Shown here: piece by piece, positions 1,376 through 21,676 of the stretch | Layout: each line of letters starts with the position of its first letter | Numbering within the stretch: the stretch's first letter is position 1 | Assembly: GCA_038213805.1 (NCBI GenBank) | Contig: JBBQSO010000086.1 | Span: 1 to 21,676, forward strand | DNA length: 21,676 nt | Direction of reading: 5' to 3' | Origin: Planctomycetota bacterium | GTDB lineage: Bacteria; Planctomycetota; UBA11346 | Translations under genes and position numbers: made by a program | Notes under the pieces: model-generated | What the model saw: the letters and a program-made list of their open reading frames with translations, nothing else | What the model was told of the DNA's origin: nothing | Databases searched by the model: none

Positions 1376-1390
1376 TCTGTAATGTACAGA
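1376..1390. promoter_or_regulatory. Putative GntR/AraR-type operator 1 (TCTGTAATGTACAGA)
   Basis: 15-bp imperfect palindrome 33 nt upstream of the regulator start. Near-identical second copy at 1485-1499. The TGTAC/GTACA core resembles the B. subtilis AraR operator. Confidence 0.75.
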
Positions 1391-1393
1391 TGC

Positions 1394-1484
1394 AGGCTAG
1401 TCGCAAAGCGAAATAAAATCATAACTTTATTAAATATAGCATATTACATTTTTTATCAACGTCACATTGCGATTACTGTACTCT
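1394..1484. promoter_or_regulatory. AT-rich divergent promoter region
   Basis: Strongly AT-rich island (aaataaaatcataactttattaaatatagcatattacatttttt) in otherwise high-GC DNA, between two divergent starts and two operators. Exact -10/-35 elements not assigned. Confidence 0.6.
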
Positions 1485-1499
1485 TCTGTACTGTACAGA
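1485..1499. promoter_or_regulatory. Putative GntR/AraR-type operator 2 (TCTGTACTGTACAGA)
   Basis: Perfect 7-1-7 palindrome 41 nt upstream of the ATG at 1541. An extra CTGTAC half-site lies at 1476-1481. Confidence 0.8.
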
Positions 1500-1540
1500 T
1501 GCCCCGCCATCCGATGACCTCTTCCTGCTCAAGGACTCCC

Positions 1541-5464: not shown

Positions 5465-5501
5465 GCGGCCACGCCATTCCACCCTCTCTTTGGATCATCC
5501 C

Positions 5502-8500
5502 ATGCGCCACCGTATCCTGCTGCTGTTGTTGTCGATCCTCGCGCTGACCCGTGGAGCATCAGCCGGCGCGACCGAGAGCTCTGGCGACTGGCAGGAGGCG
5601 GAGTTCGAGCCGATCTCCAGCGGCGTGGCCACGCCTGCGCGCATCGCCCTGCACCAGGATGTCCAGGGACTGGCCGTGGCGTTGGAGATCGACGCGATCC
5701 CCGGTTGCACGGAGCCGCCGCAAGTCGTCCTCGCGGTGGCGGCAGTGCGCCAGCAGGTGGTGACCGCGCCGGCACCGGTGCGTGGCGCCGCGGCGGGGCG
5801 CTTCCGCGTCGCCTTCGCCATCCCCGCCGCGTCCCTGGCCGCCAGCGACGCCGAATGGGCGCGGCTGCGCCTCGCCGCGACCGCGACCTTCCCCGGCACC
5901 ATCGACGGTCAGCCGCTCTACCGCGTCCGTTACCGCCACCAGGACGGCCGCGCCCTGCACGATGAGCTGGCGAAGGATCCCCAGGCCTGGCAGCCCTTCG
6001 ACCTCAATGCCTACCGGCTGCGCGTGGCCGACCGGCGCGCGCGCGTGGCGCTCGCGTTCGACCAGCCGCTGAACGGCAAGGCGACCATCGCCATCGACAA
6101 CGCCCAGGGGCGGCGGGTGCGCAACCTGGTCAGCGGCCAGCCTTACCTGAAAGGACGGCAGTCCGTGGAGTGGGACCTGCTCGACGATGACGGCAAGGTG
6201 GTGGCGCCCGGCGACTACACCTGGCGCTCGCTGCACCACGCCGGGATCACGCCCGATTACCAGTATTCGTTCTGCAACGATGGCGCGCCGCCGTGGAAGA
6301 CCGGGTCGGGGACCGACATGTGGGGGCCGGACCACAGCTGTTTCACCGCGGTCGCGGCGGTTGGTGATCAGGTGCACATCCTCAGCCCCTGCGCCGAGGC
6401 CGGCTACCAGGGCGCGATCACCGATCTGCAAGGGGTTAAAAAGAAGAGCTGGGGCGCGCCGACGGTGCCGAGCCACTTCCTACTCGCGACGGACGGCGCG
6501 GAGGTGTTCGCCGCGGCTGACAACGGCAAGCAGCAGATCCTGCTGCGCTACAAGCCCGGCGCGGACTGGCTGCCCTTCGGCAACGGGCAGAATGAGATCG
6601 TGTGGGGCACGGCGGCGATGAACGGCTTCGGCAAGGATGATGGCGCCTTCAGCCAGGCGACGTGGGCAGGCTTCAGTCTCGCGGGCTTCGCGGTGTGGGG
6701 CGACCGCCTGGTGGTGGCGAGCCGGGCGGATCAGGCACTGCTGGTGTTCGTGGCGGCGTCGGGCGCGAAGGAGGCGACCATCCCGTTGCCCGACCCCGGC
6801 GCGCTGACCGGTCTGCCCGACGGGTCCCTGCTCGCGGTCAGCGGTGGCGCGATCGTGCGCTTCTCCGCGCATGCGGTCCGGTCCGCACCGTTCATCGGCG
6901 CGGGCAAGCTGCAGCCCGGCGCGATGGCGGCGGGTGCGGACGGGAAGCTCTACGTCATCGACCAGGCATCGTCGCAGATCGTCATCCTCGATGCGGGCAC
7001 CGGCCGCGAGACCGGCCGCCTGGGCAAGCCGGGTGGCGCCTACGCCGGGGCCTATGATGCGGAGCGCATGGTGCGTCCGCTGGGGCTGTCGCTGGCGGCC
7101 AACGGCTGGCTGTGGGTGACCGAGAACCGCTTCAACCCCAAGCGCGTACTCGCCTGGGATCTGAAGACCGGGCGCGTCGCGCTCGAGAAATTCGGTTCCA
7201 CCAGCTACGGCGCCTCGGGCGGCGGCCTCGACGGCGCCGATGGCGGTCGCGCCATCGGCCAGGGCGTGATCTGGAAGCTCGATCCGGCGCACCATACCGC
7301 GCGGCCGTCGAGTGTGCTCTTCGCCGCGGCGGACGCGCTGCCGGGCGCGATGCACTGGCGCTTCCTGCGCCGCGACGGCCGCACCTTCCTGCTCGGCTAC
7401 AGCAGCAGCTGCAGCCTGGTCGAGCTGCTGCCCGACGGCAGCGGGCGCCTGCTCGCCCAGCACGGCTCGGCGATGAGCTTCTGCCTGGGCCTCGGCAGCC
7501 GCGTGCCACCGCTGTTCCTCGAGACCTACTACCAGAAGCGCGGCTTCGACACGGCGGAGAAGCGCAAGCAGCTGCCGGAGGGGCGCCTGCCATCGATGTG
7601 GGACATTTTCGTGTGGAGCGACGTCAACGGCGATGGCGTGATGCAGGCGGATGAGCTGGAATTCGGCGAGCGTTTCGGCGGCGGCTACTGGGGTGCGGAC
7701 AGCGAGGGCCTCGACCTGGTCGTGCCGCTGTTCAAGGACCTCGGCGGGCGGCCCGGCAACTGGCGCCTCGAGCTGCCGCTGCTCGGCTGGTATCCGTCCG
7801 GCGCGCCGCGCTGGAAGCCGCTCGCCGAGGGCGAGGCGGCGGCCAAGCCGACGCTGCCGGTGCACTGGGGCAACGAGTCGTCGCTGACCGATCGGAACGG
7901 AGTGCTGTTCCTCAACGCCGTGGACCATCTGATGTGCTATGGACCGGATGGCGCCCTGCGCTGGACCTACCCGAACAAGTGGTCGGGCGTGCACGGTTCG
8001 CATGGCGCCCCGCTGCCGTCGATCGGCGAACTGCAGGGCGCCCTGTTCTTCCTCGGCAACGCGCCGCTGGACGACGGCAAGACCGACGTCTTCGTGCTCA
8101 ACGGCAACCACGGGCGGTTCTTCGCCCTGACCAGCGACGGATTCTACGTCGACGAGTTCTTCAAGGACGTGCGCATGGGCTCGGTGGTCGACGCCTACCT
8201 GATCGGCGGCGAGTGCTTCGGCGGCTCCTTCTGTCGCGGCGCGGACAAGGTCTACCGCCTGCTCAGCGGCCACACCGACTACCGCCTCTTCACGCTGCGC
8301 GGCTTCGACAGCATTGTGCGCGGTCCGGGTGGGAAGCTGACGGTGACGCCGCCGCAGATCGACGCGGCCGACCGCCGCGCACAGGCGGTGGTGGCGGGAC
8401 ATGCGGAACCGCGCAGCGGCAGCATCCCGTGGCTGCAGGCGCCGCCCGCGCTCGATGGCAGCGGCGGCGGCTGGCCGGCGGAGCCGGTCGCGAAATGGGA

Positions 8501-9122
8501 CAAAAGCGGGATGTTCCCAGTGCAGGTCCAGGCCGGGTGGGACGCGACCTCGCTGTATGTGCGTTGGACCGTCGAGGATGAATCGCCGTGGTCGAACCAC
8601 GGCGCCGACGAGCGCATGCTGTTCAAGACCGGAGATTCGGTCGACCTCCAGCTGGGCACCGATGCCGGCGCGCTCGCCAACCGCGTCGCACCCGTAGCGG
8701 GCGATCTGCGCCTGCTGATCGCCCCGTTCCAGGGCAAGCCGGTGGCGATGCTCTACCGTCATCGCGTGCCGGGCGCCAAGGATCCGGTGGCGTTCACGTC
8801 GCCCTGGCGCACCGAGAAGGTCGATGTGGTGCAGCGGCTCGACGGGGTGCGGATCAACGCGGTCGTCGGGCGTACGCGGACCAACCGCGGCTTCTGCACC
8901 ATCGAAGCGGCGATCCCGCTAGCGGACCTGGGACTGAAGCCCGCGGCGGGCCGCGACTACCGCGCGGACTTCGGCGCGATCTTCGGCGACCCGGACGGGC
9001 AGATGGACCAGCTGCGATCGTACTGGTCGAACCAGGCGACCGGCCTCGTCAACGATGTGCCCGGTGAGATCATGCTCTTCCCGAATGCCTGGGGCACCGT
9101 CCGTTTCCTGGAGGCCAAATGA
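5502..9122 (+). CDS. Large secreted paralogue, ~1206 aa: FlgD Ig-like, beta-propellers, C-terminal CBM9/DOMON-like
   Basis: ATG 5502 with signal peptide MRHRILLLLLSILALTRGASA. FlgD-Ig motif ATIAIDNAQGRRVRNL...VEWDLLDDDGKVVAPGDYTW. NHL-like repeats. C-terminal GWDATSLYVRW, GDSVDLQL, GDLRLLI, EAAIPLADLG are collinear with the upstream paralogue. Confidence 0.85.
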   Translation: MRHRILLLLLSILALTRGASAGATESSGDWQEAEFEPISSGVATPARIALHQDVQGLAVALEIDAIPGCTEPPQVVLAVAAVRQQVVTAPAPVRGAAAGRFRVAFAIPAASLAASDAEWARLRLAATATFPGTIDGQPLYRVRYRHQDGRALHDELAKDPQAWQPFDLNAYRLRVADRRARVALAFDQPLNGKATIAIDNAQGRRVRNLVSGQPYLKGRQSVEWDLLDDDGKVVAPGDYTWRSLHHAGITPDYQYSFCNDGAPPWKTGSGTDMWGPDHSCFTAVAAVGDQVHILSPCAEAGYQGAITDLQGVKKKSWGAPTVPSHFLLATDGAEVFAAADNGKQQILLRYKPGADWLPFGNGQNEIVWGTAAMNGFGKDDGAFSQATWAGFSLAGFAVWGDRLVVASRADQALLVFVAASGAKEATIPLPDPGALTGLPDGSLLAVSGGAIVRFSAHAVRSAPFIGAGKLQPGAMAAGADGKLYVIDQASSQIVILDAGTGRETGRLGKPGGAYAGAYDAERMVRPLGLSLAANGWLWVTENRFNPKRVLAWDLKTGRVALEKFGSTSYGASGGGLDGADGGRAIGQGVIWKLDPAHHTARPSSVLFAAADALPGAMHWRFLRRDGRTFLLGYSSSCSLVELLPDGSGRLLAQHGSAMSFCLGLGSRVPPLFLETYYQKRGFDTAEKRKQLPEGRLPSMWDIFVWSDVNGDGVMQADELEFGERFGGGYWGADSEGLDLVVPLFKDLGGRPGNWRLELPLLGWYPSGAPRWKPLAEGEAAAKPTLPVHWGNESSLTDRNGVLFLNAVDHLMCYGPDGALRWTYPNKWSGVHGSHGAPLPSIGELQGALFFLGNAPLDDGKTDVFVLNGNHGRFFALTSDGFYVDEFFKDVRMGSVVDAYLIGGECFGGSFCRGADKVYRLLSGHTDYRLFTLRGFDSIVRGPGGKLTVTPPQIDAADRRAQAVVAGHAEPRSGSIPWLQAPPALDGSGGGWPAEPVAKWDKSGMFPVQVQAGWDATSLYVRWTVEDESPWSNHGADERMLFKTGDSVDLQLGTDAGALANRVAPVAGDLRLLIAPFQGKPVAMLYRHRVPGAKDPVAFTSPWRTEKVDVVQRLDGVRINAVVGRTRTNRGFCTIEAAIPLADLGLKPAAGRDYRADFGAIFGDPDGQMDQLRSYWSNQATGLVNDVPGEIMLFPNAWGTVRFLEAK

Positions 9123-10942
9123 TTCGCGCGCTCACGTTCTTCGCCGCCATCCTGACCTGCGCCGGAACTCTGACCGCGGGCGAGGCCACCATCACCGCTG
9201 CCGGGGTCATCGGCAACACCGGTGGTCAGGGGGCCGCGCTCATCCACCAGACGACCGACCTGGGCTTCCGCGGGCACGGCAACCAGGTTGGCTGCGGTCT
9301 GGTGCTCGACCGCCGCGGCGCGTTGTGGACGCGCCTGGACGACAGCGCGGTCTCGCGGCTGAGCCTGGATGGCCGCCAGCTCGCCCGCTTCACCGCGCCG
9401 CACAGCAACAGCGGCTACGACACCATCTCATTGCTTGGCGACCAGGTACTGCTGCTCGCAAGCGGCGAGCTGCTGAGCCTGCCGATCGAAGCCGCGTCGG
9501 GCAGCGCCTTCACACCGCTCGGCGCGAAGCTGCGCGCCCTCGCGCACACGCCGGTGGCGGGGCGGATGGCCGCCATCACGTCCGAGGGCGCGGTGGTGTG
9601 GATGGCGGGCGACGGCCGCAGCGAGGAGATCGCGCGCCTGCCCGACGCGTGGATCGTCGAAGCCGATGGCGGTGGCGCCCTCTACGTCGGCACGCGCTCG
9701 CAGGCCAATTTCGACGATGGCATGATGCACAAGCTCGTCGGTGGGAAGGAGGTCAGCGGCAGCGGCTGGCCCAAGCCCTGGGCGATCGTCCGCCCAGGTG
9801 TCGCCATGGCGGCGAATTTCCTGCACTGGGACGAGGGCGGCTTCTTCGCTGGCGGTTCGGGTCAGTTATCGCATTTCACCGCGGATCTTGAACCGTCGCC
9901 GGGCACGGTGCTGGGCATGCAGGGCGCGTACGTGATCGGCGTCGGCGCCGACTGGCGGCAGGAGCTTGGCGTGGCGCGCGGCATCGTGCGCATCCGTCCG
10001 GGGCTCTATGCGGTCGGTGGCGCCTGGGGGCAGCCGTTCTTCGCTGCGTGGCCCGACGTGACACGTTCGATGCACCTGATCGCGTGGTTCACCGCACGTC
10101 CCGATTGCCAAGCGCTGAACATCGATGCCGACGGCATGGTCTTCGCCGATCGCCTGGCCTACGCGTGGGACGCCACACCGGACAGCTTCCCACTGCAGGT
10201 CGAGGGTTCCGAGCTCGCCAGCCAGATCGTGCGCGCCGGTCCCAATCTGCTGATCCGCCAGGACCGCTGGGCGCATGGCAGCGATGATTGGGCGCTGCCG
10301 CTCCATTCCGGTGCGCGCATGGAGAACACCGATTGGCTGAATCGCGACAAGGTCGACCGGCCGGGGTGGTGGGATCGCGCCGAACACGGACCTGCCCGGG
10401 TCTTCCCCGCCGTGGCCTATGTGGAGGGCGAGGGCTTCACCTTCCTCTGCCTCGCCGACGCCAGCGGCGCGCGCAGCCTGCATCTCGCCGGCAACGGTCG
10501 GCTGGTCGGTGTGGGCGGCGCCGTCGCCTTCCGCTCCGCCCAGCCCGGGAAGGAATTGACGTCGCTGGCGCTGGGCGATGGCCAAACGCTGCTCGCGGCG
10601 ATCGATGGCCAAGTGGTCGAGTTCGCGCCCGCCGGCAGCGATTGGCAGGAGCAGCGGCGCTGGAACTCCTGGGGAGATGCACCGGAAGAGCGCTTGGGGG
10701 CGCGCATCCACCTCGCCTGCGATCACGGCCGCCTGCTGGTCGCGGACCAGGAGCGCAATCGCGTGCTGTGGTTCGCCGCTGCCGGCGGCAGACCGTTGGC
10801 GGTCTTCGGCGGCGTGGCAGGGGGGAGCGATCTGCGTTCGCTGGCCGCCCCGGGCCTGGTCGCGATCTGCGGCGAGCGCGCGGTGGTGCACGATGCTGGC
10901 AACCAGCGGTTGGTGAAGCTGGTGCTCGCGCCTCAGGAGTGA
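9119..10942 (+). CDS. Secreted hypothetical protein with NHL-like beta-propeller repeats, 607 aa
   Basis: ATGA overlap with the upstream stop. Signal peptide MIRALTFFAAILTCAGTLTA. NHL-like blades (GLVLDRRGALW, RLLVADQERNRVLW, VVHDAGNQRLVKL). Confidence 0.8.
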   Translation: MIRALTFFAAILTCAGTLTAGEATITAAGVIGNTGGQGAALIHQTTDLGFRGHGNQVGCGLVLDRRGALWTRLDDSAVSRLSLDGRQLARFTAPHSNSGYDTISLLGDQVLLLASGELLSLPIEAASGSAFTPLGAKLRALAHTPVAGRMAAITSEGAVVWMAGDGRSEEIARLPDAWIVEADGGGALYVGTRSQANFDDGMMHKLVGGKEVSGSGWPKPWAIVRPGVAMAANFLHWDEGGFFAGGSGQLSHFTADLEPSPGTVLGMQGAYVIGVGADWRQELGVARGIVRIRPGLYAVGGAWGQPFFAAWPDVTRSMHLIAWFTARPDCQALNIDADGMVFADRLAYAWDATPDSFPLQVEGSELASQIVRAGPNLLIRQDRWAHGSDDWALPLHSGARMENTDWLNRDKVDRPGWWDRAEHGPARVFPAVAYVEGEGFTFLCLADASGARSLHLAGNGRLVGVGGAVAFRSAQPGKELTSLALGDGQTLLAAIDGQVVEFAPAGSDWQEQRRWNSWGDAPEERLGARIHLACDHGRLLVADQERNRVLWFAAAGGRPLAVFGGVAGGSDLRSLAAPGLVAICGERAVVHDAGNQRLVKLVLAPQE

Positions 10943-10948
10943 GGCGCG

Positions 10949-10988
10949 CGGGGATGCTGGTGCGGGGAATTCCAGCGGCGCGTCCCCG
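10949..10988. terminator. GC-rich hairpin between convergent operons (possible bidirectional terminator)
   Basis: CGGGGATGC (10949-10957) pairs with GCGTCCCCG (10980-10988), with an inner GCTGG/CCAGC stem. No U-tract, so intrinsic termination is uncertain. Confidence 0.4.
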
Positions 10989-10993
10989 GCATC

Positions 10994-12175
10994 CTACCAG
11001 TTCGTGGGCTCGCTGACCAGCCGCTGGATCCAGCGGAAGGTGCCACCCATGTGGCGGTCGAAACTCGGGCTGCGCGGGCCGTAGCTCCACGAGTGGCTGG
11101 CGTTCATCGGCCACTGCAGATAGGAATCCCACTGCACAGAGGGATCCAGGCCGCCGGTGGCGTGGTGCAGCTCCCAGTGGTAGGTGCCCTCCGGACCGGA
11201 GGCGGACCATTCGACGCGGTACCAGAAGCGGATTTCCTGGTCCTGGAGGGATTTGAAGAGCTGGCCGTCATCGTTGAACAGCGCGCCCATGCCCTGGTTG
11301 TTGGCCTCGAGCATGCTGCGGAAACCCTGGGTGGCGCCGGCGCCGCAGGTGATCAGGAAGGTCGATGGCCCATCGCGCAGCACGCGGAACCACGATTTGC
11401 CGGTGGATTGCACGCGCGGTTCGGCGCGGCCGGTGGCGTTGGCGATGTAAGCGGCCCTGGCCGCGGATGGGCTGCCGTAGGTGCCGTTCTCGCCCTTGCT
11501 GCCGAGCGGCTGCGGATCGGGATGGCGCAGGTAGGGCCACAGGTAGTCGCTGGCGGCGCTCTGCGCAGGATCGGCCTGGATCGGATTGTAGCAGACCGTG
11601 GGCTGGATGGCGAAGGGCGGCTGCCGCCACACGTACATCGGGCAGCGCGCGATGCCGCCTGGCGCCGGCCAGTAGGGGCGGAGCCGGACGCCATCGTGTT
11701 GGGCCGGAGTGACGTCAAAGACCGCGCGGTAGGAGTGCGGCGTGGGGTCGCTGGCTGGCGTCGAGGAATCGGGCATGGCGGTGCGCGGTCCGATCGAGCC
11801 GTCGCGCACGTCGATCCAGCCGAAGGCCTCTTCGTGGATGCGCACCGTCGCGGAGCCGCTCGCGCCGCCGCCAGGGAAGGCGTCGTTGTCGGCCGTCATC
11901 AGCGGCGGGCTGGATGGGAAGGCCGGATCCGGCGTGGTGTCCGCGGGGTCGCCGGGGGGCAGGCGCGGATAGCGGTCCCAACCGATGCGCGAGCACTCCT
12001 GGACGTAGTTGAGCGCCGCCACGAGCATGATGCGCGCCTGGACCTCCTGCAGCGTCGCGCGCGTCTCCTCGGCGTCGCTGCGGTTGCGCACCATGAAGGT
12101 CAGGGCCAGCGAGGCGAGCAGCGCCGAGATGCCGGCGACGAGGATCAGGACGGTGCCCTGGCGGGTGCGGATCAT
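10994..12175 (-). CDS. PilX/GspK-like minor pilin, 393 aa
   Basis: True start is ATG 12175 (ATGA overlap with the upstream stop). MIRTRQG|TVLILVAGISALLASLALTF has a basic leader, Gly-1 and a hydrophobic helix without Glu5, followed by the PilX-like QARIMLVAALNYV segment. Confidence 0.8.
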   Translation of the reverse strand: MIRTRQGTVLILVAGISALLASLALTFMVRNRSDAEETRATLQEVQARIMLVAALNYVQECSRIGWDRYPRLPPGDPADTTPDPAFPSSPPLMTADNDAFPGGGASGSATVRIHEEAFGWIDVRDGSIGPRTAMPDSSTPASDPTPHSYRAVFDVTPAQHDGVRLRPYWPAPGGIARCPMYVWRQPPFAIQPTVCYNPIQADPAQSAASDYLWPYLRHPDPQPLGSKGENGTYGSPSAARAAYIANATGRAEPRVQSTGKSWFRVLRDGPSTFLITCGAGATQGFRSMLEANNQGMGALFNDDGQLFKSLQDQEIRFWYRVEWSASGPEGTYHWELHHATGGLDPSVQWDSYLQWPMNASHSWSYGPRSPSFDRHMGGTFRWIQRLVSEPTNW

Positions 12176-13539
12176 GGCGAGTCCAGGTTGCGGTCGATGA
12201 TCGCGCCGGTGGCGTTGTCCCAGCGCGCCCAGCCGGTGCCGGAGTCGGGGTGCAGACGCTGCATGCGCGCGCCGCGCAGGGTGGTGCCGACGCCGGTGAA
12301 GGACAGCTCGGCGAGCTGGCCGGTCAGGGGGCTGACCCAGCGCACCTTGGCGATGTTGACGAAGTGCGCGCTCTTCAGGAAGTGCGCGACGCCGACCGTG
12401 ACCACCGGCCACTGCGCCGGGCTCTGATCCAGCACCTTGACCATCGGCAGGGACGCGGTGATGAACTGGCCCAGGGCGGAGGTCGCGGTGCTCTGGTTGA
12501 CCACGCTGTAGTCCGTGCTCCAGTGGCGGTAGTGCTCGGAGGCGAGGACGCCGGTGGTGACCGTCCGCCCTGCGGGATTGGTCACCCCGAAGCTGTTGGC
12601 GTTGCTGAACGCGTAGATGCCAAGGGTGGTCGGCCCCATGCCCGTGCCGATGAAAATGCCGTTGGTCTCGAGGAAGACCCGCGCCATGCCGCCCTGGTTG
12701 GTGTTCGCGCCGTCGCTGTAGGTGCCATAGCAGCCGTACACCGCGTTGCTGGGCAGGTAGTCGCACATGCCGTAGAAGCCGAGCGCGCGGCTGAGCCCGC
12801 GCAGCTGCCGACCGTACCACAGGTGCAGGGGGAACTCGCCGGTGCTCGCGGCGTAGCCAGCGCTGTACGGCGTCGGCGTGGTCAGCGGGTCCGCCACGAT
12901 GTTGGCGAAAGACATGAAGGTGGGATTGGTATCGGTGTTGGTGAAGATCCCGTAGCGTCCGAACCACAGCGGCGGGATGGCGCCATCTACGGCCGGAGGA
13001 TTGCCGCGCAGCTTCTCGCAGACGTTGCCGCGGAACCAGGTGCGGGGGTCGTGGGCCGCCCAGGCGTAGGTCGGGTCGAAGCCGGTGTCCTGCTCCCAGC
13101 TCGGATCGGGCGGCGTGGTGCCGCCCTGGAGGATGACCGGCGCGGCGCTGATGGTGGCCGCGCCGGCGAGGGCGCGCGGCACGCCACCTCCCGCGGGGAA
13201 GACCTGCGACAGGGGCGCGAAGGGCAGGCCGACGGTGCCGCCCCCGGGTTGGCCGACGACCAGCGGACCGAATCCCGCAGGATTGACGGCGAAGGTCTGG
13301 CGCAGTCTCTGCCCGGAGGCGTTCGGATCATCGAGGTTGGTCCAGAAGTCGAGCTGCTCGTGTGCCAGGCTGATGCCGGTGCGCATCAGCGAGTTCTCGA
13401 GCGACAGGCGGTTGGCGATGGTGATCGACTGCGAGGCGACGCGGAAGCCGGCGGTGGCGGTGAAGATCAGCACCAGCCCGAGGCTGAGCGCGATCATCAT
13501 CTCGATCAGGGTGAAGGCGGTGCGGCGCGGGTGGCTCAT
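12172..13539 (-). CDS. PilW/GspJ-like prepilin-type N-terminal cleavage/methylation protein, 455 aa
   Basis: ATG 13539 with GAAGGA RBS. MSHPRRTA|FTLIEMMIALSLGLVLIFTATAGF is a class III signal with Glu5. Lies between PilV-like and PilX-like genes. Confidence 0.85.
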   Translation of the reverse strand: MSHPRRTAFTLIEMMIALSLGLVLIFTATAGFRVASQSITIANRLSLENSLMRTGISLAHEQLDFWTNLDDPNASGQRLRQTFAVNPAGFGPLVVGQPGGGTVGLPFAPLSQVFPAGGGVPRALAGAATISAAPVILQGGTTPPDPSWEQDTGFDPTYAWAAHDPRTWFRGNVCEKLRGNPPAVDGAIPPLWFGRYGIFTNTDTNPTFMSFANIVADPLTTPTPYSAGYAASTGEFPLHLWYGRQLRGLSRALGFYGMCDYLPSNAVYGCYGTYSDGANTNQGGMARVFLETNGIFIGTGMGPTTLGIYAFSNANSFGVTNPAGRTVTTGVLASEHYRHWSTDYSVVNQSTATSALGQFITASLPMVKVLDQSPAQWPVVTVGVAHFLKSAHFVNIAKVRWVSPLTGQLAELSFTGVGTTLRGARMQRLHPDSGTGWARWDNATGAIIDRNLDSP

Positions 13540-13555
13540 GCTCGTCCTTCGGGTC

Positions 13556-15595
13556 TCAGCGCAAGATGCAGGGGATGCGCGGATCGTAGTAGTTGAAGCG
13601 CGCCACCGACGTCGCGCGCAGCCGCACCGACTTGGGTATCGGCCCACGGTCGAGCAGCTTGTTGAAGTTGCGGTCGGCGCCGTAAAGGCCGACGAAGGTC
13701 TTACGGTGGACCAAGTCCGGGCCGCTGTCCTGGGAATCGCCGTTTAGGACCTCCTGCGCGCCCATGGCGGTGCCGGTCGGCAGGTCCGCGGGCACGCCGC
13801 CCGCGCCGGGGAACCACAGCTCCGTCTTCTCGGGATTGCGGTAGCAGAACAGGTGCGGGTCGACGAAGGCGACATCGCTCATGCGACCGGAGAAGTCGCG
13901 AAAATTGCCGCTGCTGTCGGTGCGCGGGCCCGCGATCGGGTAGCGGCTGGCGTCGACCGGCGCGCTCGGCAGGGTCTCGAAGTCCTCGTATGACTGCCAG
14001 TCCGCGGTCCAGAACACGATCTCACGGCAGCGCTCGGACGGAGCGAAGGGCAGCCCCAGGTTGTAGTGGTCGAGGTCGCCCATCAGGTTGCTCACGCGGC
14101 CAGGCTGGATGGTGCCCTCGAGCTTGTTGCGGCCGCCGCTGGTCTGGTTGAGCGGGTAGGTGAAGCCGACGCCGATGTTGCGGATCGGCCGCGGTGACAG
14201 TGGTGCCCACTGCTCGGCGGTGACGCTGCCGCTGCCGAAGATGGTCCCGGCCAGCGCCGGTGAGAACAGGTCGTACTGCAGCAGCGGATAGTCGATCATG
14301 AGCGTGCGCTCGATCGGCCGCGGCACCGCCCAATCGTAGGGGAAGCTGGCGGCGAAATCCATGATCAGCTTCACGCAGCGCTCGTGGTAGTAGAGGATCA
14401 GCGCGTTGGTGAGGGGCGGGTCGCCCGCGCCGCTGCCAGCCAGACTGCCGCCCGTGACACCGTCCCAGCTCACCGCGGTGACCTTCACGCCCTTGGTGTG
14501 GAGGTCCTCGTCCATGCCGGTCGCGTCCAGCGGGTACCACGCGGTCAGGCAGGTCGCCGCGTGGCTGAGGAAGCGCATCGCCTGGACCTGCTTCCACTTC
14601 TGGTCGTCGGGAGTGCCCGGCTCGTAGGTCGGGATGCCGCCGGAATGGGGATCGTTCCAGAACGTGTCGGACAGGCCCTTCTTCTTGCAGTACCAAAGCG
14701 CCGCCTGGAGGTAGCGCACGGCCGCGGTGCGAGTCGGCCAGTCGCCGTCCGCGCCGCCGCCGAGCGGGGTCGGCGACTGGCCGGAGTCGAGCTGCCGGCC
14801 GCAGGCGTACGGGAAGTAGCCGTAGTGGACGCCTGAACCCGGGTCTGGCCAGTCGAAGACCTTCTGCAGGTCCGGATCGGTGCCAGGGATGGCGGCGCCG
14901 GGGATGCGGGTGGACTCCCAGCAGTACGCCTTGTCCTCGGCGCCGTTCCTGGGGAATTCATAGAGGTGCCAGTAATTGGTCCCGGCCGTGGTCTGCTCGG
15001 GCGGCATCCAGCCGTACTGCATGTGGATGCTGTACAGCGGCGGCGACGGGTAGGCGGCGAGGTAGGGCCAGTTCTTCAGCGGCAGACCGTGCATCGCGTT
15101 TTGCTGGGCATAGCCGGTGATGCCGATGAGCAGGCGCTGCGCCTCATTGGGTGGCGCCTCCGCCTGGCCGGTCTCCTCGGTGCTGGTGCTGGCCTGTGGC
15201 TGCGAATAGTAGATGTAGCCGCCTTCGTCGAGGATCTGCTTGATCTCGTCGTTGTCGGAATCGAGCCGGCGCGCAAGTTCGAGCGGTACCGGCATCATGC
15301 CGTAGCGGTGCGAGGAGATGCGCGCATCCAGGTCCCATGCCTGACTGCGGTAGCCGACCGCCGCCTCCCAGCAGTCGGTGCCTTCGGAATCGGCGGTGGC
15401 GTTGTCGCTGTGCGCGCTGCTGAACTGTTCAACCATCTCCTCGGCCTTGGCCGCTGCATAGAGTTGGAAGCGCGACATCTGCTGGGCCTTGAGGCCCATC
15501 GGGAACAACACCAGGATGCTGACCACCCCGAAGGCTACCAGGCCGAGCGAGATGGCGACCTCGAAGAGGGTGAAGGCGGCGCGGGGGGTGCCCAT
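13556..15595 (-). CDS. PilV/GspI-like prepilin-type protein, ~679 aa (N-terminus resembles Verru_Chthon cassette protein B)
   Basis: MGTPRAA|FTLFEVAISLGLVAFGVVSILVLFPMGLKAQQ...AAAKAEEMVE is a class III signal with Glu5 and the LFPxGL pattern. Start 15595 preferred for the short leader; ATG 15685 is an in-frame alternative. Confidence 0.82.
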   Translation of the reverse strand: MGTPRAAFTLFEVAISLGLVAFGVVSILVLFPMGLKAQQMSRFQLYAAAKAEEMVEQFSSAHSDNATADSEGTDCWEAAVGYRSQAWDLDARISSHRYGMMPVPLELARRLDSDNDEIKQILDEGGYIYYSQPQASTSTEETGQAEAPPNEAQRLLIGITGYAQQNAMHGLPLKNWPYLAAYPSPPLYSIHMQYGWMPPEQTTAGTNYWHLYEFPRNGAEDKAYCWESTRIPGAAIPGTDPDLQKVFDWPDPGSGVHYGYFPYACGRQLDSGQSPTPLGGGADGDWPTRTAAVRYLQAALWYCKKKGLSDTFWNDPHSGGIPTYEPGTPDDQKWKQVQAMRFLSHAATCLTAWYPLDATGMDEDLHTKGVKVTAVSWDGVTGGSLAGSGAGDPPLTNALILYYHERCVKLIMDFAASFPYDWAVPRPIERTLMIDYPLLQYDLFSPALAGTIFGSGSVTAEQWAPLSPRPIRNIGVGFTYPLNQTSGGRNKLEGTIQPGRVSNLMGDLDHYNLGLPFAPSERCREIVFWTADWQSYEDFETLPSAPVDASRYPIAGPRTDSSGNFRDFSGRMSDVAFVDPHLFCYRNPEKTELWFPGAGGVPADLPTGTAMGAQEVLNGDSQDSGPDLVHRKTFVGLYGADRNFNKLLDRGPIPKSVRLRATSVARFNYYDPRIPCILR

Positions 15596-15701
15596 GGGCG
15601 CCAGGGGAGCGGAGGTTCCGCCGCCGGCCGGTTCCTCGGCAAATATCGCAATGCACGCTGCTGGAACAGTTGACCTCGTGCTCATAAATAATAGACGACT
15701 C

Positions 15702-16243
15702 CGCGTGGCCGGACCGGACACGTGCATTTATGGCTATTCAAGAGGAAAAAGCTAATGAAATGCGATTCCTCGGCTTTTCGCTGAGGTGATTACGAATCAA
15801 TACGATAACGACAAATGGTGTCGTCCGGACGCGACGCGCTGACCGGCCCCGTAACCATTTGTAAGCTTCAGCCGCCAAGTGATCACAAGTCGCGGTCGCC
15901 CGATCGCGGTAGGATACACTCATTAACCGCACTCGTGGCCTTCACGTTTCACGAAAAGCGCGTGGTGGATCGGGCGTATCCCTTTGCGCTGTGCTGTGAT
16001 AAACGGGATACAGCCGGCTGCCCGCAATGCCTACGGACGTTAGCGGCTGCAGAGAGGGTGGTTCTGCTCATTTCCAGACATTCGCCATGTCGGTGGGGTG
16101 GGCCGCATCCACTTATCGCCGCTAGCCGGGTTTATTGGACAAGCGGTTTCACTACCCCGCGGCATCTCGTGATGGAGTGTGCGCGTGCATTCAGTCAGTC
16201 GAGTGCCGATGCGCCCCCGGAAGCACCGGCGCGAGCCGCATCC
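15702..16243 (+). ncRNA. Candidate large structured non-coding RNA (unassigned)
   Basis: No credible ORF; about 56% GC by hand count over 15661-16200. Back-to-back stems include two perfect 9-bp helices and multibranch junctions. Most of the non-Watson-Crick pairs seen are G-U on the + strand. Confidence 0.45.
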
Positions 16244-16245
16244 GT

Positions 16246-17094
16246 TCACGGTGTGCCAGGCCTCGTCTTCCCGGTCTTCGCCGGGATGAGCCCGCGCAGC
16301 CCGATGCGGTTCTTGGCCAGCGCCAGGTCATCCATCCATACCACGAAGCCGTCACCGACGGTGGCGCGATAGTTGCACCAGCCAAAGGACAGGGACTGGA
16401 AGACCGCGGCGATCTCGGCACCGGTGAAATTGCCGGCACCATTGTGCAGCGCTATTTCGGCAACCTCGATGCCGTTCATGAACATGCGGTAGGTCTGAGT
16501 GGCGTGGTCGACGTGCCACTCCACCAGCGTCCACTCGTCGGTGAACCGGTAGCCCGATTTTCCGGCGGTGGCGAACTCCTTGCGCGATTTCGGCTGGATG
16601 TTGTAGAGCCAGTAGTAGGTGCCGTTGCCGCCCTGGAGGGTGTCGAGCAGGCGCACGTCGATGGGGTCCTTGAAGCCGGGGCTTTCGGCGGTGCCGGAGA
16701 CCAGTGTGGAATGCAGGAAGCCGTCGGCCGCCAGCGGCACCGGCTGTTGCACGCGGAAGAACAGCCGCCCCCAGTGTGTCCCGCCTAGGTCGATCAGCAC
16801 CTTACCCGTTAGCGTTATACGGCGTGGGCCTTTGGGCACCGCATCCAGGCGCAGCGCGTGCAGGCCGGTGTGCGCGACATCGTCTACAACCTCGACCTTG
16901 CCGGTCTTCGTGAAGCCGCGGGGTATGGCGCCCGACGCGGTGCCTTCGAAGTCCTCAACAAGGCTGAGCGGACCGTTGCCGACCGGCGGGTCGGCGAAAG
17001 GCGCAGCGGCGCCCTTCGCCTCGGCCGCGGCGAGTTGAAGGGATGTGCCAGCGAGAGCGATGATCGAGACCGAGCGCAGCAGAGAGGTGGCCAT
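16246..17094 (-). CDS. Secreted Cip1-like (polysaccharide-lyase-like beta-jelly-roll) protein, ~282 aa
   Basis: Start ATG 17094 with signal peptide MATSLLRSVSIIALAGTSLQLAAA. Motif order EDFEG, VVDDVAHTGLHAL, WTLVEWHVD, FMNGIEV, LSFGWCNY, VWMDDLALAKNRIG matches the Trichoderma Cip1 core as I recall it. Confidence 0.72.
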   Translation of the reverse strand: MATSLLRSVSIIALAGTSLQLAAAEAKGAAAPFADPPVGNGPLSLVEDFEGTASGAIPRGFTKTGKVEVVDDVAHTGLHALRLDAVPKGPRRITLTGKVLIDLGGTHWGRLFFRVQQPVPLAADGFLHSTLVSGTAESPGFKDPIDVRLLDTLQGGNGTYYWLYNIQPKSRKEFATAGKSGYRFTDEWTLVEWHVDHATQTYRMFMNGIEVAEIALHNGAGNFTGAEIAAVFQSLSFGWCNYRATVGDGFVVWMDDLALAKNRIGLRGLIPAKTGKTRPGTP

Positions 17095-17310
17095 GGGGTG
17101 TTCCGGGATGACCACCCAGGGTGCGTGCGCGGCGCATGGGGCAAGCCGTGGAAGATCGGTCCGCCTACGACGTCCCAGACAGGAGCATGTGAGCATGGCG
17201 GCGGTCATTCGGCTCCTGGCCTTGCCCCGCCCTCTTCCGACACTGGTCGACCTCAGCCTAGTGTATAGGAATCAATCTTCCCAACCGCCTGCCCCGCCCA
17301 GGGATCGCCG

Positions 17311-19098
17311 ATGCCACCCGTGCGCCTGATCCTCCTCCTCATTCCCCTGCTGCAGGCCTGCGCCGCGCCGCTCACCGCCGCCGAGCCGCGCGCGGATGGC
17401 GTGGAATTCGCCGACACCGTGCGCACCTTCGATGTCGAGGAATCCACCGTCTCGCGCTTCTACAACCTGCCCTGGGCCGACGCCTGCAACGCGCGGCGGG
17501 CGCAGATGTACGCGGCCTGGCAGGCGACGTTGGCAGCGGCAGACTTCGACGCGCTGGGTGTGGCGGGCCGCGTCGACTGGCTGCTGCTGCGCACCCAAGT
17601 GACCTACGAGCTCGCCAAAATCGCGGAGGATCGCGCGCGGCTGGCGCAGCTCGCCGACCTGCTGCCGTTCCGCACGCCCGTGGCGGACCTGCTGATGTCG
17701 CGCTGGCGCCATGCACAGGTCGACCAGGCGGCGGCCGCGGCGACGCTCGCGGCCATCCCCGACCAGGTCCGCCGCATCCGCGCGCGGTTGGAACTGGGAC
17801 GCAAGGTCGCCGACAAGGATCAGGTCGCAGAGCATCCCGCGGTTGACGGCGTCAAGATGGAGGAGGTCGCGCCGCTGCCGATCACGCCGCTGCTCGCGCT
17901 GCGCGCGACCCAGACCATCGCGGCGATGCGCGACGCGACCAAGGCCTGGTACGAGGCCTATGATGGGGCCCAGCCGGGCTTTTCCTGGTGGATGAAGTCT
18001 CCGTACGAGCAGTCCGAGAAGGCGCTCGACGAGTTTGTGAAGTACCTGCGCGAGGACTGCGCCGGGTTGAAGGGCAAGGACGAGGACCCGCTGCTCGGCG
18101 AGGCGCTCGGCGCCGCCGGCTTGGCGCGCGATCTCGCCAAGGAGTTCCTGCCGTACGCCCCGGATGAGCTGCTGGCGATTGGTGAACGCGAGTTCGCCTG
18201 GTGCGAGGCACGCATGCGCGAGGCGGCCAAGGCAATGGGCTGTGGCGACGATTGGCATGCGGCGCTGAACCGGGTGAAGGCGGATTTCGCTCCGCCCGGT
18301 GAGCAGGACGCGTACATCGCCAGCCAGGCCGCCGAGGCCATCGCCTTCGTCACGAAGCGCGACCTGGTCACCGTGCCACCGCTGTGCGAGGAGACCTGGC
18401 GCATCAAGCTGATCTCCAGCGACGCCCAGCGGCTGACGCCATACGTGGCCTACGACGGCATGAACGTGCTGGCGGCCTACGCGCGCGAGGACATGAGCAA
18501 CGCCGACAAGCTGATGAGCATGCGCGGCAACAACCGCCATTTCACGCGCCTCACCACCGCGCATGAGCTGATCCCTGGCCATCACCTGCAGAGCTGGTAC
18601 GCGCAGCGCTTCCGCGCCTACCGCGGCGAATTCACCACGCCGTTCCTGGTCGAGGGCTGGGCGCTGTACTGGGAGATGGCGCTGTGGGACCAGGGCTACG
18701 CACGCTCGCCCGAGGACCAGGTCGGCATGCTGTTCTGGCGCATGCACCGCGCAGCGCGCATCATCGTCACGCTCAAGTTCCACCTTGGGCAGATGACCCC
18801 GACGCAGATGGTCGACTTCCTGATCGGGCGCGTCGGCCACGAGCGCTTCGGCGCGACCAGCGAGGTGCGCCGTTTCATCAGCGGTGACTATGCGCCGCTC
18901 TACCAGTGCGGTTACATGATCGGCGGCCTGCAGCTGCGCGCCCTGGCCAAGGAGCTGACCGCGACGGGCATGACCACCAAGCAGGTCAACGACGCCGTGC
19001 TGCATTGCGGGACGATCCCGGTCGAGCTGATCCGCGCCAGCCTGCGCGGAGTGCCGCTGGGGCGGGAGTCACGGGCGGCGTGGCGCTTCGATGGTTGA
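17311..19098 (+). CDS. DUF885 family protein (putative secreted Zn metallopeptidase), 595 aa
   Basis: AHELIPGHHLQ, FLVEGWALYWE, RAARIIV, EVRRF and YMIGGLQL are DUF885 hallmarks. N-terminal signal, possibly a lipobox (LQAC). Confidence 0.9.
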   Translation: MPPVRLILLLIPLLQACAAPLTAAEPRADGVEFADTVRTFDVEESTVSRFYNLPWADACNARRAQMYAAWQATLAAADFDALGVAGRVDWLLLRTQVTYELAKIAEDRARLAQLADLLPFRTPVADLLMSRWRHAQVDQAAAAATLAAIPDQVRRIRARLELGRKVADKDQVAEHPAVDGVKMEEVAPLPITPLLALRATQTIAAMRDATKAWYEAYDGAQPGFSWWMKSPYEQSEKALDEFVKYLREDCAGLKGKDEDPLLGEALGAAGLARDLAKEFLPYAPDELLAIGEREFAWCEARMREAAKAMGCGDDWHAALNRVKADFAPPGEQDAYIASQAAEAIAFVTKRDLVTVPPLCEETWRIKLISSDAQRLTPYVAYDGMNVLAAYAREDMSNADKLMSMRGNNRHFTRLTTAHELIPGHHLQSWYAQRFRAYRGEFTTPFLVEGWALYWEMALWDQGYARSPEDQVGMLFWRMHRAARIIVTLKFHLGQMTPTQMVDFLIGRVGHERFGATSEVRRFISGDYAPLYQCGYMIGGLQLRALAKELTATGMTTKQVNDAVLHCGTIPVELIRASLRGVPLGRESRAAWRFDG

Positions 19099-19224
19099 GC
19101 GGGCGCTGCTGCGTCGGCGCGCCGCTGCACCTCATCAACGGCGGCACGCTCGTGCGCGTACGATGAACATGCCCCGCGCGCCCGCTTTCGGCGTCGGTCG
19201 ATCCCCCACTCCAGAGATGAACCC

Positions 19225-20079
19225 ATGAACGCACGCCTGCACGGTCTCCTCGCGGTGGCGATCTTGATCTGTGCCGCTTGGCCGCGCTGCGGCGCGGTCG
19301 AGACCACGGTCGCCGCCGATGTCGCCTACAAGACTGGCCCGGCCCTGAGCGAGTACGAACGGACGCGCTGCGCGCTCGACGTCTACGCGCCGGCCGGGGC
19401 GAAGGACCTGCCCTGCGTGGTGTGGTTCCACGGCGGCGCGCTGACCGAGGGGGACAAGCACAGCGTGCGGGCCGGCGCCCGGGCGCTCGCGCAGGACGGC
19501 GTGATCGTGGCCGCGGTCAACTACCGCCTCAGCCCGCGCGCCCCGTATCCCGCCTATGTCGAAGATGCGGCCGCGGCCGTCGCGTGGGTGCGCCAGCACG
19601 CCACCACCTATGGCGGCGATCCGCGGCGGGTCTTTGTCGCTGGGCACTCCGCCGGCGGCTACCTCGCGGCGATGGTCTGCGCGGACCCGCGCTGGCTGAA
19701 GCCCCATGACCTGATGCCGCACGACCTCGCCGGGGTCATTCCGCTCAGCGGACAAATGGCCACGCACAACACCATCCGCGGCGAGCGCGGCCTGACCCCC
19801 ACCACCATCCTCATCGACGACGCCGCGCCGCTGGGCCACGCCGGCAAGGACTCGCCGCCGTGGTTGGTGCTGTACGCCGAGCATGACATGACCCTGCGCG
19901 GTGACGAGAACCGCTACTTCGCCGCGGCCCTGACCGCCGCTGGCCACACCCAGGTCGAGATCCACGAGATGGCCGGGTATGATCACGGCGGCATTGGTGG
20001 CCGGCTCGGAGAGCCGGACGATGCGGTGCGCGCGAAACTGGTGGGGTTCATCGCGCGAGCTGCGCTGGCCGGTCGCTGA
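19225..20079 (+). CDS. Secreted alpha/beta hydrolase (HSL/BD-FAE-like esterase), 284 aa
   Basis: LDVYAP, VVWFHGGAL oxyanion motif, VNYRLSP, nucleophile elbow GHSAGG, AEHD and GYDH catalytic Asp/His candidates; signal peptide. Confidence 0.92.
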   Translation: MNARLHGLLAVAILICAAWPRCGAVETTVAADVAYKTGPALSEYERTRCALDVYAPAGAKDLPCVVWFHGGALTEGDKHSVRAGARALAQDGVIVAAVNYRLSPRAPYPAYVEDAAAAVAWVRQHATTYGGDPRRVFVAGHSAGGYLAAMVCADPRWLKPHDLMPHDLAGVIPLSGQMATHNTIRGERGLTPTTILIDDAAPLGHAGKDSPPWLVLYAEHDMTLRGDENRYFAAALTAAGHTQVEIHEMAGYDHGGIGGRLGEPDDAVRAKLVGFIARAALAGR

Positions 20080-20082
20080 GCG

Positions 20083-20502
20083 TCAGCGCATGCGGGAGCG
20101 GAAGGTCTCGAACAGCTGCCAGCAGCTGCCGGCCGGAATAGCCGGGCCCGGGCCGGTGAAGGAGTGGTTGAGAAATGCGTCGTAACCCGGGGTGCTGAGT
20201 ACCTGTGGATCATCGAGGTCGCGGAACGCCATGGACCAGGTCGGGAAACGCGTCTCGGCCTGTTCTCCTTGCAGCAGGATCATGCAGCCGCGGTGCCGCC
20301 GATCGGTGGCTATCCGCTCGTAGAGAGTCGTCACGACCTCCCGTCCGCCTTCCAGGCACTGCATGAAGTTGCCGCCTTTGTAGAGCAGAATGCCGGTGAT
20401 GCCGAGCGCCGTGTTGGTGGCGCGGGCGCGTTCGAGCAGGTCGAGAAGGTCCTGGTTTGAGAAGGGAATCGTGGCGGAGCTGACATAGATGAGGTGGTGC
20501 AT
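20083..20502 (-). CDS. Stand-alone BLUF blue-light sensor, 139 aa
   Basis: Start ATG 20502. LIYVSSA (Tyr), NTALGITGILL, FMQCLEG (Gln), IATDRRH and FPTWSM (Trp/Met): the BLUF signature residues are present. Confidence 0.93.
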   Translation of the reverse strand: MHHLIYVSSATIPFSNQDLLDLLERARATNTALGITGILLYKGGNFMQCLEGGREVVTTLYERIATDRRHRGCMILLQGEQAETRFPTWSMAFRDLDDPQVLSTPGYDAFLNHSFTGPGPAIPAGSCWQLFETFRSRMR

Positions 20503-20582
20503 AGGTGGGCGCTGCGGAGTGGGGCGGAGTGATGCGGCGCAGGGAGTCTGCAACACGGCGGGTTCGCCGTCAAACCTCCGTC

Positions 20583-21676
20583 TCAGGGTTTCAGCGCGCC
20601 CCTGCCCGCCTGTGGCGCCACGAACGCCGGTATCACATAGCTGTACGCCGCATACCGGATCTCACTCCACGCCAGCTCGCCCTCCGCACGTCCCGGCACC
20701 AAGGGATGGTGCACCGGCACGCACATCACGCGCATTCGGATCGCCGAACGACCGTGTGTCAGGTCGCGCGGCAGCAGGAATTCGTCGTCGCGGAAGCGAC
20801 GGTTGGAGGTGCGGACGTCGTGCTCGCTGGCGCCGAGCTCGCCCTTGGGATCGGAGGACACCCAGGAGTTCGAGCCCGCCAGGTACCAGGTGCCAGCCGC
20901 CTGCCACGTGGCGCTGCCGCCCGTGGCGGCGCCGTCCGCGACCCACACCTCGGCGCGCTGATCGGGCAGCGCGTAGTCCAGGGTGCGGCGCAGTAGCACG
21001 CCGACGTTCGCGGGGTCGATGGCGAGGGTGAACTCCGAGGTGCCGGCGGTCTTCCGTGCCGTCATGGTCTCGGGCGCCTGGACCTGCTTGCCGAGCACGG
21101 TGTCGACGCCGATCTCGTACAGCGAGGTGATCTGGTAGGGGGGCGAAGCGGCGGGCGAGGCGTAGCGGTGCGCGGTCTCGTTCGCCGCGTCGCCGATCTC
21201 CAGTGCGTCGGTCTTCACCAGCGACGCCGCCGGCAAACCGTACCAGTACGCAACGGTGCGGTAGTGTTCGGTCGACTCGTCGGTACCGCCGTGCTCCATC
21301 TGGATGAGCGCATTGCTGCCGAAGGGCATGAGGTCGCCGAGCAGGAAGCGGTAGCCCGACTCGATCATGTCTTCGGGTCCCTGCGCGTCCTTGCGGTTGC
21401 GCGCGCCGACCGGGTGCCCGGCGAAGGGCAGCGTCATGGTCACGCCGCCCCAGTAGTCGCCGCCGCCGCCCCACTCCTCGCTGCCGGTGCCCTGCACCTG
21501 CGGGCTGCGGCTGTCGTCGAAGAAGAAGCGCGGATCGCCCTCAAGCGTGCCCAGATCGGCGCGGTCCGAAAAGACGAACGTGGTCCCGACCAGGCTGCCC
21601 GACCACACCGCGCTGCCCTCTTCACCGCGGGAATCGAGCAGCACCAGGTCCTTACCCGGCGTGGGCGTGCCCTGGT
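20583..21676 (-). CDS. DUF2961 / GH172-like protein, C-terminal part (5' end beyond the window)
   Basis: LEGDPRFFFD...QGTGSEEW matches the DUF2961 EGD...GTGxEDY motifs; also YRFLLGDLMPF, MEHGG and VAYWY. The frame stays open to the window edge (QGTPTPGKDLVLLD). Confidence 0.8.
   Translation of the reverse strand, partial: QGTPTPGKDLVLLDSRGEEGSAVWSGSLVGTTFVFSDRADLGTLEGDPRFFFDDSRSPQVQGTGSEEWGGGGDYWGGVTMTLPFAGHPVGARNRKDAQGPEDMIESGYRFLLGDLMPFGSNALIQMEHGGTDESTEHYRTVAYWYGLPAASLVKTDALEIGDAANETAHRYASPAASPPYQITSLYEIGVDTVLGKQVQAPETMTARKTAGTSEFTLAIDPANVGVLLRRTLDYALPDQRAEVWVADGAATGGSATWQAAGTWYLAGSNSWVSSDPKGELGASEHDVRTSNRRFRDDEFLLPRDLTHGRSAIRMRVMCVPVHHPLVPGRAEGELAWSEIRYAAYSYVIPAFVAPQAGRGALKP

Follow-up and report, generated by a model that had tools for sequence, protein, structure and literature searches.

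On a 21,676-bp stretch of DNA from an uncultured Planctomycetota bacterium—one whole contig (C86, referred to below as the window) of a 5.5-Mb, 180-contig genome that is 90.3% complete and has ~70% G+C—we found three consecutive genes, here called A, B, and C, that belong to a lineage-restricted, multi-copy family of giant minor pilins. We regard the trio, with a probability of about 0.6, as an exchangeable tip or initiation complex of the PilI/PilJ/PilK type (GspI/J/K or PilV/W/X in other nomenclatures) with bulky, lineage-specific heads, and we infer that it is incorporated at a filament tip, where it would serve a ligand- or substrate-specific role. Literature searches returned no published description of the A-B-C family.

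The three genes lie on the minus strand in the order A (positions 13556-15595; 679 amino acids, aa), B (12172-13539; 455 aa), and C (10994-12175; 393 aa), which would correspond to the PilI/GspI, PilJ/GspJ, and PilK/GspK positions, respectively. A and B are separated by 16 nt (13540-13555), and B and C share a 4-nt overlap (ATGA). Protein A begins with the seven-residue leader MGTPRAA, followed by the class III signal FTLFE (15560-15574) and an N-terminal pilin helix at residues 10-60 (together 15416-15595, minus strand); B begins with MSHPRRTA/FTLIE (signal at 13501-13515, minus strand; slash, cleavage site) and C with MIRTRQG/TVLIL (12140-12154, minus strand), such that A and B both carry the glutamate at position 5 (Glu5) and C lacks it. 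These lengths, junctions, and signals agree with what had been read earlier from the letters and a list of their open reading frames (ORFs) alone (hereafter the sequence-only reading). Although long ORFs are common on both strands at the 70% G+C of the window, we consider A, B, and C to be real genes because the reading frame of A has a G+C content of 0.89 at third codon positions and because each protein has hundreds of homologues (182 for A, 244 for B, and 457 for C at E ≤ 0.001 among the candidates scored).

The cassette is repeated many times in its own genome and keeps its order across relatives. With tblastn, we recovered 11 A-B-C cassettes in the genome of the window—ten complete and one cut by a contig end—together with a lone C at another contig end, and found no fourth conserved gene, with other families occurring at no more than 4 of the 12 own-genome loci when antisense shadow ORFs are disregarded. 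Scanning a single genome from each species yielded 179 stretches that encode a relative of A; in the 59 loci retained from these, all titled as Planctomycetota metagenome-assembled genomes (MAGs), the order A-B-C is found in 50, the remaining nine are truncated within A or B where the DNA stops, and other orders do not occur. Tandem cassettes are present at four of the 59 loci and a divergent pair at one. The family is restricted by lineage: within a sample of 400 genomes from the phylum, A is present in 12 of the 23 other genomes of the window's GTDB family and in none of the remaining 377, and a profile of C matches 25 of 40 other genomes of that family at 2 to 44 matches per genome, which are not exact copy numbers.

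An exhaustive profile search with the globular part of A retrieved 376 cluster representatives at E ≤ 0.001, and nearly all of the full-length matches listed start 50-110 residues into the protein, leaving space for a pilin helix; the C-terminal half of A is the part most widely retained. The FTLFE motif itself is found in 56 of the 61 A homologues listed and a close variant in four, the one other row being a mis-called site. Over 52 complete cassettes, the pairwise divergences of A, B, and C correlate with one another (r 0.79-0.87, Mantel p ≤ 0.001), indicating that the three are inherited or duplicated as a unit; such correlation alone does not show binding. Two irregular forms were encountered as well. 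Genomes G012, G178, and G386, from other genera of the family, contain open frames of 986-1578 aa that match parts of A only and may be larger or rearranged forms, and a 600-aa protein with an N_methyl motif (P0168), which is 57% identical to C across 58% of the query, may be a fusion of B with C or an error in gene calling.

The predicted fold of protein C is closest to that of GspK. Its AlphaFold2 model (predicted local distance difference test score, pLDDT, 75.1) ends in a C-terminal strand at residues 379-386, and the best structural match among 48,161 chains is GspK of enterotoxigenic Escherichia coli (3ci0_K; Z 8.1, root-mean-square deviation 3.0, 102 residues aligned at 16% identity, model residues 36-388), followed by XcpX (5vtm_X, Z 5.6), ComZ in third place (Z 5.3), and then FimA and streptococcal PilA. 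No counterpart of the GspK alpha-domain was aligned in C. Foldseek found no match for C in the PDB at E ≤ 0.001, a second-look aligner run against Foldseek's 84 chains gave nothing above Z 3.5, and none of 49 C relatives matched any pilin family; around the signal, the family consensus reads GTILIIVAG. Passages of PMC13533445 set out a framework in which a PilI-PilJ dimer joins a PilK subunit whose last strand is supplied either in trans, by PilY1/PilC, or in cis, as in GspK. In the terms of that framework, C is predicted to have a pilin core resembling GspK and to supply its own last beta-strand in cis.

A and C are, moreover, predicted to bind each other. For A (residues 39-679) together with C (36-393), complex prediction gave an interface score (ipSAE) of 0.79 (runs 0.78, 0.81, and 0.79), the best of three controls reaching 0.01; among 157 solved complexes, 116 attain this score, as do 2 of 215 mismatched pairs, and these figures apply only approximately here because we used our own alignments. 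The runs share at least 42% of contacts, and the pLDDT of the partners is at least 64. The predicted interface comprises the alpha-1C helices (A 41-59, C 38-60) and the C-terminal strand of A (665-679), and it also pairs the most conserved blocks of A (512-525 and 543-554) with C 176-224. Consecutive predicted contacts between A 547-549 and C 197-199 and between A 523-524 and C 181-182 suggest intermolecular strand pairing in the model. Residues at the predicted interface are more conserved than the rest (0.71 versus 0.54 in A; 0.66 versus 0.46 in C), which is not independent support because such models favor conserved regions anyway. Taken with the gene order and the Glu5 pattern, the predicted GspK-like fold of C and its predicted contact with A support the analogy to PilV-PilW-PilX and GspI-GspJ-GspK that the sequence-only reading had drawn.

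Protein A is the largest of the three, and its bulk is unlike any family or fold that we searched. The AlphaFold2 model, a confident one (pLDDT 80.2, predicted template modelling score 0.75), has the pilin helix at residues 10-60 and a mixed fold after it. For the globular part, neither Pfam and NCBIfam nor the sequences and folds of the PDB gave a match, including none by Foldseek against the PDB at E ≤ 0.001; these searches speak neither for nor against the adhesin or enzyme that the sequence-only reading had placed there. In a protein atlas, A falls only into a cluster of its own kind (score 0.82) and B into N_methyl clusters. B scores 23.9 bits against Pfam N_methyl (cut-off 21.2), a family also matched by 48 of 52 relatives of B and, for A, by 20 of 51, and it has no family match beyond N_methyl and no match in the PDB. 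Profiles of A, B, and C matched PDB sequences through the N-terminal helix only, or not at all, and aligning the A and B profiles by hhalign with the genome's small GspI/J-like proteins and with each other recovered the N-terminal 20-49 residues alone. An enlarged subunit in the putative V/I position with residues that match nothing, as initially described, is what we find. The description of the extra residues as rich in Trp, Tyr, and Pro was right for two of the three: relative to the other proteins of the window, A is enriched in Tyr (5.0% versus 2.6%) and Pro (8.4% versus 5.8%) and not in Trp (2.7% versus 2.6%). Among the pilin profiles that had seemed pertinent from the letters, N_methyl is matched by B, PilX_N by none of the three, and Verru_Chthon at a score below its cut-off.

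The site that holds the cassette differs between close relatives. Relative to a sister genome, DNA identity is 88-91% in the flanks, with 91% on the left (5492-10930, against L092) and 89.3% on the right (17298-21676, against L021); between them, 10931-17297 is a variable island made up of C, B, A, the spacer upstream of A, and a gene with a weak Cip1-like match. Within gene C, at its end, identity goes from 0.87-0.93 down to 0.45-0.70, protein identity across the island is 55-57% for A and 51% for C, and neither the spacer nor the Cip1-like gene has a counterpart at the sister-genome site. For five other cassettes common to both genomes, the A proteins are 94-98% identical. Other metagenomes contain versions nearer to that of the window, with 82-89% identity in A. 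Conserved flanks around a divergent cassette indicate that this site carries different cassette versions in close relatives, and the difference would, judging from these alignments, have arisen by replacement or by very fast divergence. The suggestion that the module is exchangeable is therefore strengthened on two counts, the 11-12 paralogous copies and the different version between conserved flanks. Separately, two contigs of the sister MAG (L020 and L021) have A genes that are 93.8% identical and upstream DNA that differs; these could represent a recent duplication or two strains in one bin.

We propose a mechanism in which A, B, and C would be cleaved by the genome's single prepilin peptidase and would then assemble through their N-terminal helices and conserved globular surfaces. 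The resulting complex would start the assembly of a type IV filament (either a pilus or the pseudopilus of a secretion system) and cap it; the filament would belong to a machine encoded in trans, and the large lineage-specific domains of A and B would form the exposed head. The genome would hold about a dozen such heads, each potentially under separate regulation. With a dozen heads, and with whole cassettes differing between close relatives at one site, the cassettes would act as interchangeable tips; and because C is predicted to have its strand in cis and the cassette contains no PilY1-like gene, the trio would be self-sufficient. It is conceivable, if rather doubtful, that the scheme extends further: that the cassettes are a library of tool heads for one machine, each bulky tip of new fold capturing a different polymer, surface, or cargo; that cassettes are swapped between strains at fixed sites in the manner of phage receptor-binding proteins; and that the I/J pilins, rather than PilY1 or K, carry the specificity.

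The machinery itself lies elsewhere in the genome, in keeping with the original view of the cassette as a stand-alone unit. A family-profile search of the window found no pilin, ATPase, peptidase, or PilY1-like gene besides the trio. Genome-wide, there are nine T2SSE matches (four full length), one prepilin peptidase (A24, on contig C91), six secretin matches, and six PilM_2 matches, three of them over the family cut-off; no match was found in the genome to Pfam T4P_PilY1 or SBP_bac_10 (DUF1559), a result that is uninformative since the control profiles matched nowhere either. Contig C5 (108166-110236; L087) encodes gspE-gspF-gspG and, after them, three small pilin-like genes with Glu5 (204, 151, and 184+ aa) that are tentatively GspH-, GspI-, and GspJ-like, and the contig then ends with no GspK-type gene seen before that point. 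On contig C26, PilT-, PilB-, and PilC-like genes lie 11 kb from another cassette. Of 45 ORFs in the genome with a Glu5 class III signal, 22 are A and B proteins, and the small pilin candidates measure 141-260 aa; a pilin of 204 aa is encoded on contig C4.

Several of our results weigh against a filament-tip complex. No link of any cassette to a particular machine was found, and the small GspG/H/I/J-like genes on C5 imply that at least one machine may have its own tip. The GspK match of C, at Z 8.1, lies close to values that the tool describes as frequent in models with no clear match, and the 102 aligned residues cover no more than the pilin core; the A-C score is a model confidence, not a measurement. 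At E ≤ 0.01, neither the three proteins nor their relatives (51 of A, 52 of B, and 49 of C) matched Pfam T2SSI, T2SSJ, T2SSK, or PilX_N. A wide structural search with A found no relative, the best hit (Z 5.8) falling on a helical background. The residue preceding the cleavage site in the window's A and B is Ala, not Gly, and the placement of A in the I position would derive only from gene order, the signal, and the predicted contact with C.

The C5 genes also bear on a more specific possibility, namely that the cassettes are alternative tips for the pseudopilus of a type II secretion system (T2SS), each selecting or pushing a different class of secreted cargo rather than serving as an adhesin. 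This is a sub-case of the tip-complex reading, not a true alternative to it, and in its specific form we consider it unlikely. C resembles the T2SS protein GspK with its terminal strand in cis (PMC13533445, in the passages on PilK homologues), Pfam T2SSK has no match in a genome that is 90.3% complete, the C5 row reaches the contig end without a K gene in sight, and large secreted proteins flank several cassettes. That row, however, already includes small I- and J-like genes, the pairing of cargo with cassette is not conserved, and no fourth family occurs at more than four loci.

A somewhat less probable explanation is that the trio stays anchored in the membrane as a complex and is at no time raised on a filament, its class III signals serving for processing and inner-membrane anchoring, as part of a periplasmic or surface binding complex. 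The "bindosome" sugar-binding proteins of Sulfolobus provide a model for such an arrangement. It would fit the lack of adjacent machine genes, both in the window and at the 11 own-genome loci, the position of several cassettes beside glycan enzymes, a TonB-dependent receptor, or pairs of an extracytoplasmic function (ECF) sigma factor with FecR, and the size of the heads, which are very large to be passed through a secretin. What it leaves unexplained is that the genes strictly keep an I-J-K-like order and that the third member is GspK-like and lacks Glu5, a combination that is the signature of filament-initiation complexes; a binding protein alone, moreover, would need no three co-evolving pilin-like subunits. 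That A or B is instead the main building block of a dedicated thick filament is very improbable: both have a full pilin helix and Glu5, but a cassette in which each gene occurs once and one product lacks Glu5 suits a capping complex. Candidates for small pilins (141-260 aa) are also encoded in the genome, and the major pilins known to us are far smaller than 455-679 aa.

The neighbors of the cassettes within the genome vary. An ECF sigma factor and FecR adjoin the cassette at three loci and a TonB-dependent receptor at one, and single loci have giant PA14 and beta-helix proteins, a fucosidase with GH2 and LacI genes, or a melibiase. In the window, the genes on one side of the cassette are the Cip1-like gene, DUF885, an esterase, a BLUF blue-light sensor protein (20083-20556, minus strand), and DUF2961. 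The Cip1-like gene (16246-17208, minus strand, 320 aa) has a weak Cip1-like/polysaccharide-lyase-like match that is below cut-off (E 0.0013) and paralogues at 52-57% identity on contigs C10, C11, and C48. Three giant secreted proteins of 1360, 1210, and 607 aa (1382-5464, 5490-9122, and 9119-10942, plus strand), convergent with the cassette, show weak CBM9-like and FlgD immunoglobulin-like matches; as a group (1382-10942), they are 91% identical in DNA in the sister genome and have paralogues at 30-45% identity on contigs C12, C46, C107, and C111. These giants were considered as cargo of the cassette, and the same pairing is absent at other cassettes. A regulator with a GntR helix-turn-helix and a periplasmic-binding-protein-like domain is encoded at 215-1342 (minus strand).

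The 650-nt spacer upstream of A (15596-16245, minus strand) has lower G+C and is presumably the promoter region. A scan of the window for promoter and terminator consensus sequences returned nothing in this spacer, and its one promoter-like and one terminator-like site were both intragenic and no more than in shuffled sequence. The regions upstream of the 11 own-genome cassettes have no motif common to all and no k-mer in more than three of the 11. The sequencing runs listed as containing this DNA were DNA runs, with no RNA run among them. An octamer, CAAACCAG, is found upstream of A in three of the 11 (contigs C1, C26, and C72), two of which have an ECF sigma/FecR pair upstream; it may be due to chance.

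These observations touch on the question of how one type IV filament machine serves many functions, to which the known answers are a few alternative sets of minor pilins with PilY1, or single modular pilins. In this uncultured soil and sediment lineage of Planctomycetota, the self-contained tips, each made of three genes, would number up to dozens and have largest parts without a known fold, and close relatives differ in the cassette version held at one site or more. If the tip-complex reading is true, the cassettes would offer a natural series from which to learn the rules of tip-complex assembly and of tip-encoded specificity, as well as two or three new protein folds.

Among described systems, the Verru_Chthon cassette A-D (TIGR02598 and relatives) is likewise a multi-copy, prepilin-type cassette in a lineage of the Planctomycetes-Verrucomicrobia-Chlamydiae group. 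It consists of four genes rather than three, and the only match between the two involves A residues 7-42, which score 17.7 bits with TIGR02598 (cut-off 51.4), with none for B or C; the proposed distinction from Verru_Chthon thus stands, the similarity being confined to the N-terminus. Another parallel is the GspI-GspJ-GspK tip of the T2SS (PDB 3CI0; XcpV-XcpW-XcpX, 5VTM), with which the cassette shares three consecutive genes, Glu5 in the first two and not the third, a third subunit with a weakly matching GspK-like pilin core and C-terminal strand in cis, and first and third subunits predicted to bind through alpha-1C helices and beta-strands. The differences are nonetheless considerable: A and B, at 679 and 455 aa, take the place of I and J subunits, the T2SSI, T2SSJ, and T2SSK profiles and the GspK alpha-domain are unmatched, and the cassette is found outside a gsp operon with neither GspG nor GspH adjacent, in 11-12 copies per genome and up to 44 matches in relatives. 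GspI and GspJ are usually of roughly 120 and 200 aa. The PilI-PilJ-PilK core complex similarly has small I and J subunits encoded beside a major pilin or pseudopilin and the machine, which is not so for A-B-C.

Both modular pilins and alternative minor-pilin sets are concepts already known, as described in passages of PMC8179133 and PMC7541494, respectively. Large insertions occur in minor pilins such as Thermus ComZ (6QVI), Caulobacter CpaL, and the modular pilins PilB and PilC of Streptococcus sanguinis (covered in parts of PMC8179133 and PMC13533445), which, as A and B may also do, join a pilin module to a large extra domain displayed on a filament. In those cases, the enlarged subunit is a K-type or single pilin and its module often has a known fold, whereas here the bulk is greatest in the I and J positions, for which no known fold was matched. 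Alternative tip sets for one machine are, in turn, a feature of the PilV-PilW-PilX(-PilY1) and PilI-PilJ-PilK complexes of type IVa pili, in which the tip primes assembly and presents a head; Myxococcus xanthus, for example, has three alternative minor-pilin/PilY1 sets (as described in part of PMC7541494). The Planctomycetota cassettes differ from these in having no PilY1/PilC-like or FimU/PilE-type linker genes, in placing the bulk within the pilins themselves, and in comprising many more sets per genome.

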